The notes beneath the pieces were generated by a model. That model had not been told where the DNA came from and searched no databases. It was given only the letters and a program-made list of their open reading frames with translations. Both the position numbers and the translations under genes were made by a program. Positions 29,920-44,305 of a DNA stretch of 64,000 bases are shown one piece after another (the first letter of the stretch is position 1; each line of letters opens with the position of its first letter). Location of the stretch: positions 2,714 through 66,713 of the forward strand of contig JANXZC010000158.1 of NCBI GenBank assembly GCA_025355725.1, read 5' to 3'. The stretch is from Syntrophus sp. (in: bacteria). Its GTDB lineage: Bacteria > Desulfobacterota > Syntrophia > Syntrophales > UBA8958.

Positions 29920-30375
29920 TCAAAATAAGGATTCATCGTCATGCTTCCTGATGACGGCGCGGACATCTTCGTTCCCTTTCTTGATCACAAAGGAGGCACT
30001 TCCTTTCGCGATTAATTGGTTACTCTCATCGAAGAGCTCCGCCTCCGCATGGGCCAGGCGGCGGCCGCGGCGGATGAAACGGCCCTTTCCGAGCAAATTG
30101 CCACTTTTTACAGGCATAAAGTAATGGATCTGCAATCCTGCCGTCATGATCATTTCATTGTCATTCAAAAACGGGAAAATGGAGGCGCTGCAGGCCGCAT
30201 CAGCCAAGGAGGCGATAACACCGCCGTGGACCGTCCCCCAGAGGTTCATATGTTTCCTTGTCGATGATATCCTGAGTAGCGAGCCACGTTCATCCATCAT
30301 CTCTATCTGTAGCGATATCGTCTGGAAATAGGGTACTCCCCCGATTTTAGACCGGATGTATTCCCTGATGTTCAT
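29920..30375 (-). CDS. PaaI-family hotdog-fold thioesterase
   Basis: NLWGTVHGGVIASLADAA...GLQIHYFMPV...GRFIRRGRRLAHAEAELF. Confidence 0.8.
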   Translation of the reverse strand: MNIREYIRSKIGGVPYFQTISLQIEMMDERGSLLRISSTRKHMNLWGTVHGGVIASLADAACSASIFPFLNDNEMIMTAGLQIHYFMPVKSGNLLGKGRFIRRGRRLAHAEAELFDESNQLIAKGSASFVIKKGNEDVRAVIRKHDDESLF

Positions 30376-30379
30376 CCGC

Positions 30380-31729
30380 TCAACTCCCTTGTTTTTCCGG
30401 AAGGATCAAAGCGCCGGCAACGAGATCCATGATCTGAACCACCTTCATGTCCAGTTGGTAATGGCTGATCAAATCCCCAAGGCCGTCGCGGCAGTTATGA
30501 CACATTGTACAGACAACATCGGCGCCGGTTGTTTTCAACTGCTCAGCTTTTATTTTGGCGACCTCCAGGCGTATGTCGCGGTACTCGGGCATGACCAGGA
30601 GACCGCTGCCGCCGGTGCAGCAAAAATTGTTCATGCCGTTGGGGTGCATTTCCCGGAAATCGGAGCAAATCTGTTTCAATATCCAACGCGGTTCCTCGAC
30701 GAGGCCGCTGTAGCGAGCGACATTGCAGGAGTCATGGAAGGTAACGGATGCTCTATATCTGGACCGGTCGACTTTGATCATGCCTTCCCTGAGGTAACGT
30801 ATGATGGTTTCGATAACCGACTCCGTGGGAATCGTCTGATTGTGCTTTGCCCAGTTATATCCCTCCCACCGGACGGAGCGATAGCCGTGGCCGCACTCGG
30901 AAACCACGATTCGTTTTGCCCGGAGCCTTGCGGCTGCCTGATAGAGATTGCCTGCCATGAAGGCGCCCAGACGATCATCGCCGGAAAAAAGACCGAAATT
31001 TGTCTGGTCCCATCCGTGCCGGGGAAGAGTCCAGCTTTCCCCGGCGAGATAAAAGAACTTTGCGGCGTTTATCAGGGAGCGGGGATCATATTTAACCTCC
31101 CGGGGGTTGACGGCGTAGATGAAATCGCAGTCCTCTTTGTCCACCCCTATCTCCACGTCATTCACCCCTAATTCATATTGAACCTCGTCACGGACCCAAC
31201 TAAGGGAGTCTATGAAATCTTCCTCCGTAACGCGCATCTGATTGCCCATTTCCCATTGATTCCTGCATACATTCGACATGCCTTGCGGAACGACACCCAC
31301 CTCCATGAGAATACCCCGGGCCAAGCGTATCAGGGCCGCATTGTCCACGCCCATGGGGCAGTTGAAAGTGCACCGCCGGCACCCGCTGCAAGTGCCGAAG
31401 ACAATATCCTTCAGGCGAGAAAGATCCGTCTCTTCCGTCTTGCCGCCTGCCCCGACCCAGCGGGGAAAGACCCGTCCCAGCCAATCCAGGTGACGATTAA
31501 ATATTTTCCTGATCTGGTCGGCCTTGTAAGCGGGGCTCATGAACGGGTCGTGGGGCCTCGCCAATGCGTAATGGCATGATTGTGCGCATTCCCCGCAATG
31601 CACGCATGTCACCATGGAACATGCCGTTTGCCTATTGATCCTGGCGCGCAGTAGCGCCGGGATTCTTCCGGCCGTGGCAAGCGCCGGATCTCCTAACCGG
31701 TTCCCGGATAGATGAGTATTTGCGTTCAT
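30380..31729 (-). CDS. DsrK/HdrD/HmeD-like Fe-S protein (two ferredoxin motifs plus CCG domains)
   Basis: CVHCGECAQSCH and CSGCRRCTFNCP, followed by SECGHGY, HDSCNVARY, NFCCTGGSG and CTMCHNC. A GGAGGTG RBS is present. Confidence 0.7.
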   Translation of the reverse strand: MNANTHLSGNRLGDPALATAGRIPALLRARINRQTACSMVTCVHCGECAQSCHYALARPHDPFMSPAYKADQIRKIFNRHLDWLGRVFPRWVGAGGKTEETDLSRLKDIVFGTCSGCRRCTFNCPMGVDNAALIRLARGILMEVGVVPQGMSNVCRNQWEMGNQMRVTEEDFIDSLSWVRDEVQYELGVNDVEIGVDKEDCDFIYAVNPREVKYDPRSLINAAKFFYLAGESWTLPRHGWDQTNFGLFSGDDRLGAFMAGNLYQAAARLRAKRIVVSECGHGYRSVRWEGYNWAKHNQTIPTESVIETIIRYLREGMIKVDRSRYRASVTFHDSCNVARYSGLVEEPRWILKQICSDFREMHPNGMNNFCCTGGSGLLVMPEYRDIRLEVAKIKAEQLKTTGADVVCTMCHNCRDGLGDLISHYQLDMKVVQIMDLVAGALILPEKQGS

Positions 31730-31762
31730 TAAATTGCACCTCCGTATAGTTTAGCCATGCCG

Positions 31763-32431
31763 TCAGGAAAGGCCGCTGATCTTGCCGTTGCCGATGTTTC
31801 TATGTCCCATTGTTTTCCCCAGGTAGTAACGTGTAAAGGGGTAATAGAGGTAATGGATGATCTTTGAAAAGGGAACATAGAAGTGAAAGAATGCCGCCAT
31901 CAGAAAGAACGCCCATAAGGGACCGTTGCCCATCATGAGTGAGTTGACGGAGATGGCGCCTAGGGCCGCAGCATAGAAGGCCGTCATCATGATCAGCGCA
32001 AAATAATCATCGGGCGTACTGATCATCCTTAAAGACGGCTCCGCCAGACGCCGATAAAGCCTGAGCAGGCCGACGACAAATGCCGCCCCCAGGGTGATCT
32101 GCAACGTCCTCATGAAGAGTCCATATTTCAACAGCTCCGGCCGGTAGGGAATGAAATATGTCAGACTGATGGCAGCGGCAGCGCCAAGATGGAATAAGAC
32201 AAACTGTACATAGAACACCGGATTCCTGTTGCTGCCTTCCCTGGTCCAGGGTTTTGCCACCGCCAGCAGCGAGCTTACCACCACGCCCGCCGGCTGCCCG
32301 GCAGGCAGCGTCCTCTCCCTGGCGGCGCTGAAATTCAACAGCCAGATGATTCTCAGGACATAGGCGATGCCCATAAACGCAAGGACCGCCATGTGAAGCT
32401 TATGCTGGATTATGCCGAGAAATTCATTCAT
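31763..32431 (-). CDS. DsrM/HmeC/NarI-like integral membrane cytochrome-b-type subunit
   Basis: 222 aa with five or six TM helices carrying conserved His (FVLFHLG, FFHFYVPFSKIIHYLYYPF). It sits immediately upstream of the DsrK-like gene. Confidence 0.6.
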   Translation of the reverse strand: MNEFLGIIQHKLHMAVLAFMGIAYVLRIIWLLNFSAARERTLPAGQPAGVVVSSLLAVAKPWTREGSNRNPVFYVQFVLFHLGAAAAISLTYFIPYRPELLKYGLFMRTLQITLGAAFVVGLLRLYRRLAEPSLRMISTPDDYFALIMMTAFYAAALGAISVNSLMMGNGPLWAFFLMAAFFHFYVPFSKIIHYLYYPFTRYYLGKTMGHRNIGNGKISGLS

Positions 32432-32520
32432 GGTTCCCCCTGATAGATCGATAAGAAATTCCGTTGCCTAAGTTTATAAAACCAGTTTCATGAAAAAGTA
32501 TCGATATGAGTAAGACGTGA

Positions 32521-32838
32521 TCAAACACAGCCATCCGGTTTGGGCAGACCGGCAATCCGGCATGCCCCCCTTGCCAGTCCCACGGGAAACAGCCCCTGAA
32601 GCTGTTCCAAACGAAGCCCGGTGCTCTGACAGACTTTCCTGATCAGGGGCGCCGTCTTGTTCTTTTCCCAATATTCTCTCACATAATTGATGACGGCCCA
32701 GTGTTGCTCACTCAGTTCAACGATACCTACGCCTTTCGCAATGCGTCGCGCCAAATCCTCATTCCAGAGTTCCGGTCTGAGGAGATAACCGTCACCGCTG
32801 TATTCAACGGTTATTGCGCCGATTAATAATGCTTCCAT
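32521..32838 (-). other. dsrC: DsrC-like module, possibly also translated independently from an internal start
   Basis: An internal ATG at 32838 is preceded by AAGAGG (32853-32848) at 9-nt spacing. The 105-aa product MEALLIGAITVEYSGDGYLL...ARGACRIAGLPKPDGCV has the normal size and C-terminal arm of DsrC. Confidence 0.5.
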
Positions 32839-33852
32839 ATGATTCGACCTCTTAAAACCGATTTTTGATAATCTTTTATTCCAACCGGGGAAACAGGTCA
32901 GAACATTCAGATAGCAGAGCATGACGGGAAGCTGCACCAAGGGTCCCGCAATGGCAATGGACAGGGCCTCTGTCCCGCTGAAGGCCGTCATAGCCAACGC
33001 CATGGCAATGGCCGTATTCTTTGTCGTCGCCCCGATGGTCACAGCGACGCGATCACCGTAAGGTAGACGGAATGCTAGGCACGCGAGGGTAGCCATAATG
33101 AGAAGGAGCAGGGAAAACGATATGGCCGGCAGGATCATCTCGAGAATGAAATGGGGGCTGTGGGAGAGGAAGGGCGCGTTCGTCGCGGCAATGATGAATA
33201 ACATGAGCAACAGCCCCATTACGGAAATATTCTGAAGAAATCCTTTCATGTCGGCAAAGGTCGCCTCGCCATGTCTGCGTATCACCCAATGTCTGACCAG
33301 GGCCGCCAGGAGCATGGGCAGGATAATGATCAGGAAGAGATACTTGCCAATCAGGAATATGGGAACGGGGACGACCTTGCCGATGAGGACCCAGCTCCAG
33401 AAAGGAACGGAACCCAGACTCAGGAATAGACTCACCGCCGAGATGGTAACGGACAGATTGACGTTGCCCGCCAGCATCCCCGTATAGGCCGGTCCCATGC
33501 CGCCGGCGGGGATCATCCCGAAGATGAGCAAACCAACCGTCAGGCCCGTTATTGATTTTGCCGGCAGCAAGGCCGTCAATCCGTACATCAGTAACGGCGA
33601 CATCAGGATGTTAAAAAAAAGCGAAATGAGAAACGGCAACGGCCGGGCGGCGACGTCCACAAGTCTCTTCCTGTTGATCTCCAGGAAGGTGGGAAAGAGC
33701 ATCAGCGCGCAGGCCAGGGGCAGGAGCAACCTGATCGGGGGCAGGGAATGGAGATTGCCGATGAGGATGCCGGCGGCGAAGGCGGCGAAAGAACATATCC
33801 CCAGGTTCCGCCTGATCTGCATCGTTATCTCCATGATGAACATTTTCCCCAT
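32521..33852 (-). CDS. bile-acid:Na+ symporter (BASS) family transporter fused in frame to a full-length DsrC/TusE domain
   Basis: The N-terminal ~335 aa are polytopic (about 10 TM, BASS-like). The last 105 aa are a complete DsrC ending GACRIAGLPKPDGCV, with both conserved Cys. Confidence 0.65.
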   Translation of the reverse strand: MGKMFIMEITMQIRRNLGICSFAAFAAGILIGNLHSLPPIRLLLPLACALMLFPTFLEINRKRLVDVAARPLPFLISLFFNILMSPLLMYGLTALLPAKSITGLTVGLLIFGMIPAGGMGPAYTGMLAGNVNLSVTISAVSLFLSLGSVPFWSWVLIGKVVPVPIFLIGKYLFLIIILPMLLAALVRHWVIRRHGEATFADMKGFLQNISVMGLLLMLFIIAATNAPFLSHSPHFILEMILPAISFSLLLLIMATLACLAFRLPYGDRVAVTIGATTKNTAIAMALAMTAFSGTEALSIAIAGPLVQLPVMLCYLNVLTCFPGWNKRLSKIGFKRSNHMEALLIGAITVEYSGDGYLLRPELWNEDLARRIAKGVGIVELSEQHWAVINYVREYWEKNKTAPLIRKVCQSTGLRLEQLQGLFPVGLARGACRIAGLPKPDGCV

Positions 33853-33879
33853 GTCCCGGCCCTTCCCGTAGCGAAATCG

Positions 33880-34305
33880 TTAAGGTTTTTTCTCCATCAG
33901 AATGTCCACCAGCAGCCCCGTCGCTCTCCCCGTCAGCTCTTTACACTTGATATACTTTTCCTGTTCCCCCAGACTCTCAAGAATATCTGCGCAGTTGGTC
34001 GAGCCGAAAGCCGCGCGGAAGGCGTTGCGAAACGCCGTTACCACTCTTGCTGCCTCACGGAAATCCTTGCCCTGCTCCATACGGCCGAAAAGGTATCCCG
34101 CGGCGATCACGCCCCCCGTCAAGGCCCCGCAGATATCCTCATGTGACCTGCCGATGCCCCCGCAAAAGCCCGAGGCAACCTTGACGGGAAAGCCGTCGGG
34201 ATTCTCGGCGAAATGATCGATGATCGTCTTGGCAATGGCCTCGGAACAGCAAAATCCATTGTTGAAATAATCGAACGCCTTTTTTTCCAGTTCTTCTTTT
34301 TCCAT
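33880..34305 (-). CDS. C_GCAxxG_C_C family redox protein
   Basis: FNNGFCCSEAI...CGALTGGV...NCADILE...KCKELT match the family's namesake Cys pattern. Confidence 0.85.
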   Translation of the reverse strand: MEKEELEKKAFDYFNNGFCCSEAIAKTIIDHFAENPDGFPVKVASGFCGGIGRSHEDICGALTGGVIAAGYLFGRMEQGKDFREAARVVTAFRNAFRAAFGSTNCADILESLGEQEKYIKCKELTGRATGLLVDILMEKKP

Positions 34306-34344
34306 GTCATGGACCTCCCGTTTTTTTGTTGAAAAAAACCATGG

Positions 34345-34362
34345 TTTGCATTATAATGCAAA
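34345..34362. promoter_or_regulatory. perfect 18-bp palindrome TTTGCATTATAATGCAAA, a candidate LysR operator overlapping -10 hexamers
   Basis: Perfect dyad in the 91-bp divergent region between the C_GCAxxG_C_C and LysR genes. The centre reads TATAAT on both strands, and a half-site copy (TTTGCATAA) recurs at about 34379-34387. Confidence 0.5.
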
Positions 34363-34396
34363 TGAATTGTAATTATTATTTGCATAATTTAAAATT

Positions 34397-35299
34397 ATGG
34401 ATACTTATCTCAATCAACTGAAAATTTTTCATGTTGCGGCCAAAGAAAAGTGTTTCACACGCGCCGCCACGGTGTTATTTCTTACCCAGCCGGGAATAAG
34501 CAAGCATATCAAGGATCTGGAGGGGCATTACGGAACAAGGCTCTTCGACCGGTTGGGGAAAAAAGTGGCCCTTACCCAGGCGGGGGAAATCCTTTTCGCC
34601 AAAACAGCAACCATCTTCAATATGATCGAGCAGTTGAAAGTGGAGATTGATGAATTGCAGGGCATGAAGGGCGGCTTTTTGAAGATCGGCGCCAGCATGA
34701 CCATCGGCGTTTATGTACTGCCGCCGATATTGGGAAGATTCCGGGACACCTATCCCCAGGTGGACATCAGTCTCGATGTCGCCGTCAACCGGCAGGTAGA
34801 GGAGAATCTACTCGCCAATGCCATTGACATCGGTTTTCTCGGGGCGCCTGCTGCTGATGCCAGGCTTGTCACAGGGCCTTTCTTAAATGACGAACTGGTC
34901 GTAATCGTGCCGATGAGCCATGAATGGGCGCGGCGGGATTTCGTGCCGCCCCACGAACTGATAAATCAAACCTTCGTCATAGCCAAAGAGGGTTCCGGAA
35001 CGAGGCGGATTATCGAAGCAAGGCTCGCGGACCGGGGCGTGACCTTAAAGAAGACCATCGAGTTCGGCCATACGGAAGCGGTAAAGAAAGCCGTGGAATC
35101 AGGCTTGGGGGTGGGTATCCTGTCCAAACTGGTCATTGTCCGGGAAGAGCATCTGGGCCTGATCAAATCCCTCCGCCTGGAAGGAGTCGATCTGACCCGG
35201 ACATTTTTCTTTGCCTATCGCAAGGATAAATATCTAAGCCGGGTTACAAAGACTTTTCTGCAGTATGCCATTTATGGAAAGGCCGGATCCGACCAATAA
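34397..35299 (+). CDS. LysR-family transcriptional regulator
   Basis: N-terminal HTH (LKIFHVAAKEKCFTRAATVLFLTQPGISKHIKDLE) and a LysR substrate-binding domain. Confidence 0.9.
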   Translation: MDTYLNQLKIFHVAAKEKCFTRAATVLFLTQPGISKHIKDLEGHYGTRLFDRLGKKVALTQAGEILFAKTATIFNMIEQLKVEIDELQGMKGGFLKIGASMTIGVYVLPPILGRFRDTYPQVDISLDVAVNRQVEENLLANAIDIGFLGAPAADARLVTGPFLNDELVVIVPMSHEWARRDFVPPHELINQTFVIAKEGSGTRRIIEARLADRGVTLKKTIEFGHTEAVKKAVESGLGVGILSKLVIVREEHLGLIKSLRLEGVDLTRTFFFAYRKDKYLSRVTKTFLQYAIYGKAGSDQ

Positions 35300-35385
35300 T
35301 CACTATTGGCCGGAGAGAAGCAGTTCTTGATTTGTTCTATATGGATCGTTCATCTGATGCCCCCTACCATATATTACCAAATAAG

Positions 35386-35868
35386 CTATTTGCCAGAACG
35401 CACCGGAAGTACCCGATATAAGTAGCTGAAGGACTGATGACGCCAGATCCGTCTGCCTTCGGTGAAAAAGAAGAGGGCGGCGTCAGAACCGCGTTTTTCC
35501 GATGTCCAGGCCCAGGCGCAGGTAAGACCAATCGATTCCGTTAAATTAACGTCATGTCCACAGCCGACAGTACGAGTTTTTTTATTGTCATACAAGCTTG
35601 CCAGCTCATCCAGCGTCGGCATTCGCCAGTCCTCGAAGCCGCCACCGCGATACCGCTCACAATAGCGCTGGGCCCCTTGCCAGTTGACATCTTCCCCATT
35701 GTCCTTCGTCGCCCACATGAGTCCCGACTTCTGGTCCAGAACGGTGCCGTCATTATTAGCAATGAAGCGGCCGTCCTTGTTGATCTCTTCGGCCGGCCCC
35801 GCGCCAGGTAGGGATAAAAAAAGCACCCATAGGAGGCAGAGGACAATTTTTGCTGACTTTACTAACAT
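35386..35868 (-). CDS. DUF1566 (Lcl C-terminal / C-type-lectin-like) exported protein
   Basis: Signal peptide, then DGTVLDQKSGLMWATKDNGEDVNWQGAQRYCERYRGGGFEDWRMPTLDELASLY. Confidence 0.75.
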   Translation of the reverse strand: MLVKSAKIVLCLLWVLFLSLPGAGPAEEINKDGRFIANNDGTVLDQKSGLMWATKDNGEDVNWQGAQRYCERYRGGGFEDWRMPTLDELASLYDNKKTRTVGCGHDVNLTESIGLTCAWAWTSEKRGSDAALFFFTEGRRIWRHQSFSYLYRVLPVRSGK

Positions 35869-35885
35869 GTCGAGCCCCTTATAAC

Positions 35886-36437
35886 CTATTTGACGGAACG
35901 TACCGGGAGCGCCCGGATGGTGGTGATTTCGTCGCTTGACTGTTTACTCCAGTACCGCCCGCCAAAGCTGAAAGAGAAGAAGGCGACGTCGGAACCGCGC
36001 TTTTCGGACGCCCATATAAAACTATCGGTAAGATCAATGAGGGGCGTAATATGGCACCTGCCGTTACAGGGCTGATTCTCACCCTCATCAAACAATCCCG
36101 CCAGTTCATCCTGTGTCGGCATTCGCCAGTCCGTATATCCACCCCCGCGATAATTTTTGCAATAGCTCCTGGCATCCGCCCATTTTATGTTGCTTCCATT
36201 ATCCTTCGCCGCCCACATCAGCCGCGTCCGCGTGTCCAGGACGGTGCCGTCGTCATAGGCGATGAATTTAACGTCCCGGGCGGTTTCTACGGCCGCGGGT
36301 TGAGGGGGGCTTTTCGCCATAGCGAGGATCGTCCCCGCTCTTGCTTCCTTTTCCTCCGTCGCTGTACTCAGTGAAGGTGGGGAGATTATAACGAGTATAA
36401 ACAGGACCAGGAAGACTCTTATCGGCATGGTTTGCAT
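35886..36437 (-). CDS. DUF1566 exported protein (tandem paralogue)
   Basis: DGTVLDTRTRLMWAAKDNGSNIKWADARSYCKNYRGGGYTDWRMPTQDELAGLF. I preferred the ATG at 36437, which is preceded by AGAGGGG; the track start is 36482. Confidence 0.72.
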   Translation of the reverse strand: MQTMPIRVFLVLFILVIISPPSLSTATEEKEARAGTILAMAKSPPQPAAVETARDVKFIAYDDGTVLDTRTRLMWAAKDNGSNIKWADARSYCKNYRGGGYTDWRMPTQDELAGLFDEGENQPCNGRCHITPLIDLTDSFIWASEKRGSDVAFFSFSFGGRYWSKQSSDEITTIRALPVRSVK

Positions 36438-42546: not shown

Positions 42547-42982
42547 ATGGACAAAAAAAACCGCCCTTTTTCTTTGCACCCATAATTCCAGCCGCTCCCA
42601 GATGGCCGAAGAGCTGCTCCGCTCAATACATGGGGAACAATGGGAGGCCTTCAGCGCCGGCACGGAACCCCGGGGCATCCATCCTTACGCCATCACGGTC
42701 ATGGCGGAAATAGGCATCGATATTTCGGAAAGCCAATCTAAACATGTGGACTCCCTGCTGGGAAAAAATTTCGATCTTGTGATCACCGTTTGCAATGACG
42801 CCAACGAGGCCTGTCCCATATTCCCCGGCGGAATAAAAAGGCTCCATCGGGGATTCCCGGATCCTTCCGCAGCACCGGGAACGCCAGAGGAACGTCTGGC
42901 CGTGTTTCGCCATGTCCGAGACGAAATCAGGCAATGGATAAAGACGGATACCATCTTCACCGTCCATCAGCTAACATATTGA
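42547..42982 (+). pseudogene. arsC: thioredoxin-type (LMW-PTP family) arsenate reductase ArsC, reading frame broken in an A8 run
   Basis: The track ORF (42602..42982) starts at QMAEELL and lacks the catalytic P-loop. The P-loop KKTALFLCTHNSSRSQ is encoded in the same frame just upstream but has no start codon. The ATG at 42547 is one base out of frame across A8 (42553-42560), and seven As would give MDKKTALFLCTHNSSRSQMAEE.... The downstream VITVCNDANEACP Cys pair is intact. Confidence 0.75.
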
Positions 42983-43413: not shown

Positions 43414-44305
43414 TCAAGATACCATCTCGTCAATAATGGCCTTGACTGGCTTGATCTCCCTGATGAGCGAGGCCACCTGGCCGGCGCCGGCAGGGAAGAG
43501 ATCGAAGTCGCCGCTCATCCAACCCTTTGGGGCGTTCATCAGATTGTATTCCTGGGATAGATCGACGGCCGGATCGGCCGACAGATCGATCAGCTTCTTG
43601 TTGGGAATGACGCGCATCTTCATGTTTGTCAGGGGTACCAGCGTCGTGCCGCCGTCGCCGCAGGCCAGAATAGCTTCTTTCCATACCTGCGGGGCGGGCG
43701 CTTCTTCCGAGGCGATGAAGCGCGTCCCGATCTGTACACCCTGCGCCCCCAGGGCCAGCGCCGCCCGATAACCGCGCCGATCGGCAATACCCCCCCGCCG
43801 CCACCACGGGAATCTTCACATGATCGGCCACTAAGGGCACCAGGACCATAGAGGAGGATTCGGAGCCCATGGAACGTAAGCCCCCCGACTCCGATCCGGA
43901 AACGACAAGGCCGTCCACGCCTTCACTGGCGGCCCGGATCGCGTGGGGAAGGGCCAGAAGCACATGCAGCCCCTTCATACCCAGTTCGTGAAGGAGGGGA
44001 TAGATTTTCGCCGGTGATCCGGCCGAGGTAGTTACGGTTTTTACCCCCGCTGCGGCCAGGATTTTCAGGATCTCAGGATTGGCGGGGTTCATGATCATGA
44101 TGTTGGCTCCGAAAGGCTTGTCCGTGAGCTCCCGCACCCCGTCCACAAGCTTTTTCGTTTCCTCGGGGCTGCTGAACCCCAGGGCGATCATTCCGAAAGC
44201 CCCCGCCTCACAGACGGCAGCGGTCAGTCGGGGACTGTTCATGGCCGCAATGGGACCCTGAATGATGGGATAACGGCATCCTAACATTTCCAGTAATGCT
44301 GACAT
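43414..44305 (-). pseudogene. nitronate monooxygenase / FabK-like FMN oxidoreductase, frameshifted in a G7 (plus-strand C7) run
   Basis: The N-terminus YPIIQGPIAAM...FGANIMI... runs to KIPVVAAGG and then becomes nonsense (YCRSARLSGG...). Shifting one base at C7 (43790-43796) restores ...AAGGIADRRGYRAALALGAQGVQIGTRFIASEEA... and joins the ORF 43414..43623. Confidence 0.75.

Follow-up and report, generated by a model that had tools for sequence, protein, structure and literature searches.

Comparison with described DsrC and transporter systems

The central thiol carrier in dissimilatory sulfur metabolism, DsrC, normally occurs as a free protein that is abundant and soluble. A 64,000-nucleotide (nt) stretch of Syntrophus sp. 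DNA (GenBank assembly GCA_025355725.1, contig JANXZC010000158.1, positions 2,714 to 66,713 of the forward strand), referred to below as the window, carries one open reading frame (ORF) in which a bile acid:sodium symporter (BASS)-type transporter is followed in frame by a complete DsrC. The DsrC part shares with known DsrC proteins (PF04358; structures 2v4j_C, 2xsj_C and 1ji8) the fold (Foldseek TM-score, TMt, 0.89), the two cysteines CysB and penultimate CysA, 11 positions apart, and the AGLPKPxGCV motif. As in known DsrC systems, its gene lies next to genes for a DsrK-type Fe-S/CCG protein and a DsrM-type membrane protein. Unlike known DsrC, it forms a covalent extension at the C-terminus of a transporter with 10 transmembrane (TM) helices, in an organism without DsrAB, and its subclade carries the signature FPVGLARGAC in place of FPxGPAKGAC.

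The DsrMK, HmcEF and TmcBC complexes and the window operon have in common a membrane subunit resembling a b-type cytochrome and a cytoplasmic Fe-S/CCG subunit, both encoded beside DsrC, which by analogy would presumably form a DsrC reductase. The window subunits differ from them in scoring under the equivalog cut-offs and in having neither DsrJOP nor DsrAB as partners. The operon is also unlike these systems in being LysR-controlled and in containing a transporter, a C_GCAxxG_C_C protein and a thioesterase.

The transporter part shares with ASBT_NM and ASBT_Yf (3zux, 4n7w) and with ACR3 a 10-TM fold with crossed, discontinuous TM4 and TM9 (TMt 0.71-0.86). ASBT_NM has, in addition, the N-in/C-in topology predicted for the window transporter, and it accepts a large cytoplasmic C-terminal fusion (EGFP, PMC6739316). 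In contrast to the ASBT and ACR3 proteins, to which it is only about 20% identical, the window transporter falls under the curated BASS and ACR3 cut-offs and carries a DsrC domain.

Split operons (Syntrophorhabdus PtaB.Bin047, L028 and L035) contain the same genes in the same order, with the same Shine-Dalgarno (SD) motif just before the DsrC ATG. Their DsrC proteins are 69-76% and their transporters about 47-61% identical to those of the window. In these operons the transporter and DsrC genes are separate, with the transporter stop 1-14 nt 5' of the DsrC ATG, whereas in the window one base has been lost and the two genes are fused.

The fused ORF and its DsrC module

The elements of the fused gene are as follows.

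32521..33852, minus strand: fused BASS/SBF-linker-DsrC ORF, 443 amino acids (aa), from the ORF listing, Pfam, AlphaFold2 (AF2) and Foldseek
32878..33852, minus strand: transporter domain, residues 1-325, with 10 TM helices of which TM4 and TM9 are discontinuous, from AF2 secondary structure, PDB sequence matches 4n7w and 3zux, and lysine/arginine (K/R) clusters
32839..32877, minus strand: linker, residues 326-338 (KRLSKIGFKRSNH), predicted to be disordered, from the predicted local distance difference test (pLDDT) and junction comparison
32521..32838, minus strand: complete DsrC module, M339-V443, with its own ATG, from profiles, PDB alignment and a 20-protein alignment
32560-32562, minus strand: CysB431 codon
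32527-32529, minus strand: CysA442 codon
32848..32853, minus strand: AAGAGG SD motif, 9 nt 5' of the DsrC ATG, a purine-rich motif kept in split relatives

Pfam SBF (PF01758) was matched over residues 46-229 (E 1.2e-24, 87.5 bits against a cut-off of 24.3) and Pfam DsrC (PF04358) over residues 348-443 (E 8.2e-29, 100.6 bits against 24.9). A score of 85.3 bits against TIGR03342 (dsrC_tusE_dsvC, cut-off 53.5) places the module in the DsrC/TusE/DsvC family. The module, whose ATG (M339) occupies 32838-32836, aligned over its full length with the solved DsrC structures 1ji8 (Pyrobaculum), 2xsj_C (Desulfomicrobium) and 2v4j_C (Desulfovibrio), and its predicted fold matched 2v4j_C, 2xsj_C and 3or2_C with TMt 0.89-0.90.

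The fused protein ends in GLARGACRIAGLPKPDGCV, with Cys431 and Cys442 spaced 11 positions apart. The features that mark DsrC proper, as distinct from TusE/RspA, two redox cysteines and an AGLPKPTGC-type motif, were both found, Cys431 and Cys442 lying in ACRIAGLPKPDGCV, which is one residue (T to D) off the DiSCo DsrC motif quoted in PMC8477390. In an alignment with 20 stand-alone DsrC proteins, the window module keeps every column that is invariant or nearly so, both cysteines included.

The SD motif and ATG of the DsrC module are untouched, and they are identical in the window and in a sister species that bears the same fusion. A free 105-aa DsrC is therefore still expected by internal initiation (AAGAGG, N9, ATG), and it is probably still made from this conserved internal start.

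An earlier, sequence-only reading of this DNA had described a single 443-aa ORF with a BASS-type N-terminus and a full DsrC with both redox cysteines, a DsrC part with its own ATG at 32838 and AAGAGG 9 nt upstream, and a position directly upstream of DsrM-like and DsrK-like genes. The Pfam and TIGR03342 matches, the sequence itself and the operon annotation, respectively, agree with these descriptions.

Reality of the fused frame

The fused ORF is almost certainly real at the DNA level. The exact 443-aa protein was present on three contigs, one of which is Logan contig L043 (SRR23617163; a contig seen in 3 samples), 100% identical to window positions 32470-36137 (3.7 kb). A sister-species fusion (P0001), 440 aa long and 85% identical, was present on four contigs, one per sample, which came from three sources: ENA k141, Logan and, for two of them, JGI. 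A fifth sister-species contig (L042, JGI) was found with a 30-mer from the junction. The sister species, about 89% identical to the window at the nucleotide level (range 84-91%), has the junction in the same frame on all five of these independently assembled contigs (L001-L004 and L042).

It is very improbable that the fusion is a sequencing or assembly artefact, the true genome having one more A at the junction and two genes in a stop-SD-start arrangement. Such an error would fit the -1 frame, which reads as a textbook TAA-GAGG-N9-ATG, and the same window holds two likely frameshifts in long homopolymers (A8 at 42553-42560 and C7 at 43790-43796). However, the junction was reproduced exactly by the independent Logan assembly, and the same frame was recovered on the five sister-species contigs from different samples and assemblers, in which the probable deletion site is AACAG and not a homopolymer. 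The runs at the junction are also 4-5 bases long, against 7-8 bases in the other two frameshifts.

The sequence-only reading had cautioned that an A6 run at the junction might have been misread, a caveat largely refuted by the junction shared between the Logan assembly and the five sister-species contigs. Both of the homopolymer frameshifts that it had pointed out elsewhere do look like real interruptions in the assembly. In the ArsC/low-molecular-weight phosphatase gene (window 42547-42982), the only ATG (MDKK...) is one base out of frame and is separated by the A8 run from its CX5R P-loop, LFLCTHNSSRSQ. The nitronate-monooxygenase (NMO)-family gene (43430-44305, minus strand) is seemingly interrupted at the C7/G7 run, and its Pfam NMO match is split and covers part of the profile only.

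Origin of the fusion

Three further features of the junction bear on its origin.

32874..32877, minus strand: A4 run, most probable site of a 1-nt deletion (A5 in L005), from comparison with L005
32862..32866, minus strand: A5 run named by the earlier reading, an alternative deletion site with a poorer fit to homologues
32852..32854, minus strand: relic TAA transporter stop, out of frame (-1) and directly before GAGG, matching the position of the L035 TGA

Split relatives were found by searching with the DsrC part alone, which retrieved stand-alone 105-aa DsrC proteins at the identities given above. At L028/L029, L032-L034/L040 (Syntrophorhabdus) and L035 the gene order is the same, but SBF (333-338 aa) and DsrC (105 aa) are encoded separately, one source being a contig of Syntrophorhabdus sp. 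PtaB.Bin047 (MVQP01000009, L040/L032). The split operon runs C_GCAxxG_C_C, SBF, DsrC, DsrM-like (216-227 aa) and DsrK-like (444-460 aa), with 4HBT as well in L028.

The junction of L035 reads TGG AAC AAG AAG GTC GTC AAA GAG CGA ATT TGA GAGG N10 ATG, giving the transporter end WNKKVVKERI*, and the -1 frame of the window equals it in length and stop position. Stand-alone transporters end in NKKIAKNEI*, NKKIISERI*, SKKIVGKRF* or NRKTVNNRI*. Those of the split operons end in ...NKK(I/V)(I/V)xxR(I/F)*, and their stop abuts the DsrC SD. The L005 tail (AAT AAA AAG ATC ATA AGC GAA AGG ATT TAA) and the window tail (AAT AAA A-G ATT ATC AAA AAT CGG TTT TAA) align base for base save one A. Restoring one A at 32874-32877 gives NKKIIKNRF*, of the same length and character as the homologues, while an A inserted in the run at 32862-32866 gives NKRLSKNRF*, a poorer fit; either site leads to the same stop.

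Since the tails and stops of the split relatives match the -1 frame of the window, the comparison indicates that the fusion is a single 1-nt deletion common to the window and the sister species, and that the base was probably lost from the A4 run (32874-32877) rather than the A5 run (32862-32866). The deletion turned the last seven transporter codons and the SD region into a 12-residue linker (RLSKIGFKRSNH). By the same comparison, the gene fusion is genuine and evolutionarily recent, and the ancestral state is split. Of the earlier caveat about the A5 run, the run itself and the TAA in the -1 frame stand, and the lost base is more probably to be placed in the A4 run. Orthologues that are always split, which had been named as evidence against a fusion, were found only outside a narrow clade; within it two fused lineages exist.

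In the -1 frame a tail like that of the homologues leads up to the relic TAA, and the A AAA A stretch permits re-pairing of A-site tRNA-Lys. Both features would suit programmed -1 ribosomal frameshifting at the A-rich junction, by which a short transporter (...KNRF*) would be restored beside the fusion at a fixed ratio. However, neither lineage has a canonical X XXY YYZ heptamer (UCA AAA AUC in the window, UUA AAA AUC in L001), nor is there an upstream SD-like stimulator at the usual spacing, and the possibility is regarded as extremely remote. Transcriptional slippage needs runs of 8 or more, for which A5 is too short. Programmed frameshifting and slippage were both rejected for want of a canonical slippery heptamer and because the run is just A5.

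Transporter domain, linker and topology

The AF2 model, built from a 77-sequence alignment, had a mean pLDDT of 85.7 and consisted of two confident domains, with pLDDT below 50 for residues 322-338. In the model, the two domains are joined by a disordered tether of about 13-17 residues. The linker derives from the frameshifted transporter tail and the former intergenic/SD region. Linker-spanning peptides of the fusion would include LSKIGFK and SNHMEALLIGAITVEYSGDGYLLR, and free DsrC would begin MEALLIG.... In Foldseek the N-terminal domain matched ASBT_Yf with TMt 0.86 (4n7x/6lh1) and ASBT_NM with TMt 0.71, and the C-terminal domain matched DsrC 2v4j_C with TMt 0.89.

The N-terminal domain belongs to the BASS/SBF family (TC 2.A.28) by its PF01758 match above cut-off and its 10-TM fold with crossed, discontinuous TM4 and TM9. 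It falls short of the BASS subfamily TIGR00841 (48.3 bits against 326.3) and of ACR3 TIGR00832 (72.5 bits against 282.8). Its TM4 motif is IPAGGMGPAYT and its TM9 motif is TTKNTAIAMALA. The name ACR3 arsenite pump, given by JGI to some homologues, was rejected on the score far under the equivalog cut-off. The TM4 cysteine of ACR3 is also missing from the window motif IPAGGMGPAYT.

K/R clusters were found at the N-terminus, at residues 61-70, 187-203 and 262-268, and in the tail at 326-335, marking the predicted inside loops and tail. ASBT_NM is C-in, and its C-terminal EGFP fusion has been used in uptake assays (PMC6739316). Homology to ASBT_NM and the positive-inside K/R count together predict an N-in/C-in transporter with a cytoplasmic C-terminus, which would put the tethered DsrC on the same side of the membrane as the DsrK-like subunit. 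This is also the topology that the earlier reading had asked of the fusion, here at the level of prediction. A natural fusion of SBF with HSP20 (P0220, 475 aa) was also observed.

Operon neighbours and genome context

The genes around the fusion are listed below.

33880..34305, minus strand: C_GCAxxG_C_C putative redox protein, first gene of the operon (Pfam E 5e-23), syntenic in all related loci
31763..32431, minus strand: DsrM/HmcE/TmcC-like membrane subunit, 222 aa, from synteny (HmcE 39 bits, TmcC 38 bits, both far under cut-off)
30380..31729, minus strand: DsrK/HmcF/TmcB-like Fe-S/CCG subunit, 449 aa (NCBIfam under cut-off; Pfam CCG and Fer4_8)
29920..30375, minus strand: 4HBT-fold thioesterase, last gene of the operon (Pfam 4HBT E 6e-14)
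34397..35299, plus strand: divergent LysR-type regulator (Pfam HTH_1 and LysR_substrate), kept in L001, L005, L031 and L037

In every locus the DsrM-like and DsrK-like genes occur together in synteny. A PDB sequence search with the DsrM-like protein returned nothing meaningful, and one with the DsrK-like protein returned one distant Fe-S reductase only (9ojn). A literature search found no function assigned to C_GCAxxG_C_C.

In the 98%-complete Syntrophales-type metagenome-assembled genome (MAG), the fused DsrC is the only DsrC-family match, and DsrA and DsrB were not found, the best dsrA match scoring 94.6 bits against a cut-off of 393. That match is a 293-aa assimilatory-type sulfite reductase beside CysH. 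The DsrAB that accompanies DsrC proper in the same genome is thus lacking, and the organism would not use the protein for sulfate respiration. Several CCG-domain proteins are encoded in the genome, whose relatives with names are, among others, Syntrophaceae, Syntrophales and Syntrophobacterales MAGs.

The cluster at G000:C6:2443-6243 (L007) encodes a MoeB/ThiF-type E1, a JAMM desampylase-like protein, a 293-aa siroheme sulfite-reductase-like protein and a CysH APS/PAPS reductase, and has the appearance of assimilatory sulfur metabolism with a hint of sulfur-carrier proteins. An operon variant at L031:5576-9276 contains LysR, C_GCAxxG_C_C, DsrC, DsrM-like, DsrK-like and a TauE-family (sulfite-exporter-type) permease replacing SBF. 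L028 has extra downstream genes for SLAC1/TehA-type, TusA and thioredoxin-like proteins. The TauE permease of L031 and the SLAC1, TusA and thioredoxin-like genes of L028 point to sulfur-type anion handling.

Proposed mechanism

The reading that we hold with moderate confidence is that of a tolerated fusion, in which membrane-tethered and free DsrC would both serve a DsrMK-like relay. The ancestral operon would have comprised C_GCAxxG_C_C, SBF, DsrC, DsrM-like, DsrK-like and 4HBT genes, with the transporter end ...WNKKIIKNRF-TAA abutting the DsrC SD. Once one A had gone, most probably through shortening of A5 to A4 at 32874-32877, the frame would have run past the stop into the DsrC frame, and ribosomes would then read the transporter, the 12 new residues (RLSKIGFKRSNH) and the complete DsrC. 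The product would be a 10-TM BASS-fold transporter whose cytoplasmic C-terminus bears DsrC on a tether, with the Cys431/Cys442 arm free at the end.

Whether tethered or free, DsrC may alternate between two partners, one that oxidises it and the cytoplasmic DsrK-like Fe-S/CCG subunit. The latter would bring the DsrC disulfide or trisulfide back to the reduced state, the electrons coming from a quinol-oxidising DsrM-like subunit, and the oxidising partner would probably be the C_GCAxxG_C_C protein, acting on the transported anion. The fusion would keep DsrC at the membrane, already the site of its reductase. DsrMK is a DsrC-trisulfide reductase (Barbosa et al. 2024, PMC10861901), and it is by analogy with this complex that a relay from the DsrM-like and DsrK-like subunits through DsrC to C_GCAxxG_C_C and substrate is suggested. 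The DsrC of Syntrophorhabdus has been proposed as a thiol/disulfide carrier for Hdr-type complexes (PMC6687939), and the fused DsrC may have such a role too, given the several CCG-domain proteins in the genome.

Distribution of the fusion

No other SBF-DsrC fusion was present among the best 150 matches of a search of 1.84 billion representatives, nor did any of 60 GTDB relatives have one, 11 of them being other members of this genus. A literature search found no description of a BASS-DsrC fusion. On these searches the BASS-DsrC fusion is new and narrowly distributed, in two close lineages.

Other DsrC fusions were observed: Rrf2-DsrC-DsrC proteins (P0211/P0213, about 365 aa), five tandem DsrC domains (P0175, 541 aa) and proteins in which an unassigned N-terminal domain precedes DsrC (P0255/P0270). 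DsrC tolerates N-terminal partners, and in P0255, P0270 and P0175 a DsrC domain stands at the C-terminal end, as in the window. Unlike the window protein, none of P0211/P0213, P0175 and P0255/P0270 is fused to a membrane transporter.

Selection and probable cassette loss

As the two fused lineages separated only after the fusion arose, their divergence reports on selection since then. Between them, the ratio of non-synonymous to synonymous rates (omega) was 0.12 for the DsrK-like gene (p for omega<1 = 1.5e-18) and 0.28 for the DsrM-like gene (p = 1.4e-4). For DsrC it was 0.43 (7 synonymous and 10 non-synonymous differences, p = 0.08), which is not significantly below 1. The pattern indicates that the module as a whole stayed under purifying constraint after the fusion, DsrC alone being not conclusive.

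That DsrC value, the highest omega in the operon, is one of several observations that weigh against a fusion in service of a DsrMK-like relay. The DsrM-like and DsrK-like proteins are under every curated cut-off, the latter scoring 239 bits for DsrK (NF045796) against 400, 311 for TmcB against 735 and 308 for HmcF against 750, and the former 39 bits for HmcE against 275. In the sister lineage the DsrK-like gene (L001:6605-7747, L002:3889-5031) has a 210-nt in-frame deletion of 70 residues, which corresponds to window 31220-31429, is flanked by a short TEE(T/D) repeat and removes the second CxxCxxCxxxCP Fe-S motif that is kept in the window. The nearest transporter orthologues, P0002 (93%) and P0003/L005 (88%), are without DsrC, DsrM-like and DsrK-like genes; a 74-aa gene lies 3' of the stand-alone P0002 transporter. 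At L005:3363-3388 the roughly 2.5-kb DsrC-M-K cassette (window 30376-32873) is cleanly absent, and only 1 nt separates the transporter stop from the thioesterase ATG. L037 lacks the cassette too. In L028, a much more distant relative, it occurs in collinear order, and it therefore seems to have been lost repeatedly. Its absence in the nearest relatives and the sister DsrK-like deletion imply that the cassette is dispensable in this group, and it may be on its way out there.

These losses, the DsrC omega and the restriction of the fusion to two lineages would also fit a first step of decay. The frameshift would then be mildly deleterious or neutral in an accessory cassette that is being lost, the read-through protein would be misfolded or degraded and the tether would have no role; if anything were functional, it would be only the free DsrC from the internal start. 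We consider this explanation unlikely, though deserving of attention. Strong purifying selection has acted on the DsrK-like and DsrM-like genes since the fusion, the window DsrK-like gene is intact, every conserved DsrC residue is kept, and the transporter lacks only about 7 native C-terminal residues. BASS homologues, moreover, accept big cytoplasmic C-terminal additions, as in ASBT_NM-EGFP (PMC6739316) and the natural SBF-HSP20 protein P0220. A tolerated fusion with both forms of DsrC is kept as the preferred account.

Nucleotide identity to L001 is 91-96% for the cassette together with the transporter gene's 3' end (window 30400-33050), against 68-89% for the 5' half of the transporter gene and 84-90% for the thioesterase gene. 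Synonymous divergence (dS) between the two fused lineages is 0.10-0.26 in the cassette region and 0.33-0.54 in the flanks. Exchange of the fused allele between species by recombination may account for this lower divergence of the cassette.

Under adaptive coupling, the fused allele would have spread between species by recombination, and the tether would be functional and selected: the BASS-type transporter would hand an imported or exported sulfur-, selenium- or arsenic-containing anion to the cysteines of the attached DsrC, and the DsrK-like subunit of a DsrMK-like quinol-linked reductase would recycle it. The SBF and DsrC genes are adjacent, 1-14 nt apart, in every cassette-bearing lineage, which suggests that they very probably work together, and the replacement of SBF by TauE in L031 and the SLAC1 and TusA genes of L028 continue the sulfur-anion theme. 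Set against this are the single 1-nt deletion at its origin, the very narrow distribution with split genes everywhere else, a linker that is merely frameshifted tail and intergenic sequence with no sign of optimisation, and the retained internal SD and ATG, by which a stoichiometric tether is not enforced. Also counting against adaptive coupling are the missing cassette in P0002, P0003/L005 and L037, the sister DsrK-like deletion and the lack of further SBF-DsrC fusions in the searches given above. A selected, functional tether is judged improbable. The designed coupling of a transporter to a thiol relay put forward in the earlier reading is likewise not supported, in view of the 1-nt deletion, the split orthologues and the absence of the cassette in the nearest relatives. 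The data fit a tolerated accident as well as adaptive coupling, and most probably the fusion is no new mechanism but a single-base accident that is tolerated and close to neutral.

Biological meaning

The general importance of the fusion is modest, since it is limited to two close lineages and may be near-neutral. If the tether did prove to be selected, it would represent a naturally occurring fusion of transporter and redox relay in a syntroph that lacks DsrAB, and spread by recombination would explain the low divergence of the cassette relative to its flanks. For annotation, the locus shows that a single-base deletion at a stop/SD overlap can yield a two-domain protein, and that such a frame is not to be dismissed as an assembly error. 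It also draws attention to a conserved, little-studied operon (C_GCAxxG_C_C, transporter, DsrC, DsrM-like and DsrK-like) in syntrophic Deltaproteobacteria-like lineages. Where DsrAB is lacking, a DsrC tethered to the membrane amounts to a natural experiment on a small scale, and it suggests that DsrC can still serve a DsrK-type reductase at the membrane.

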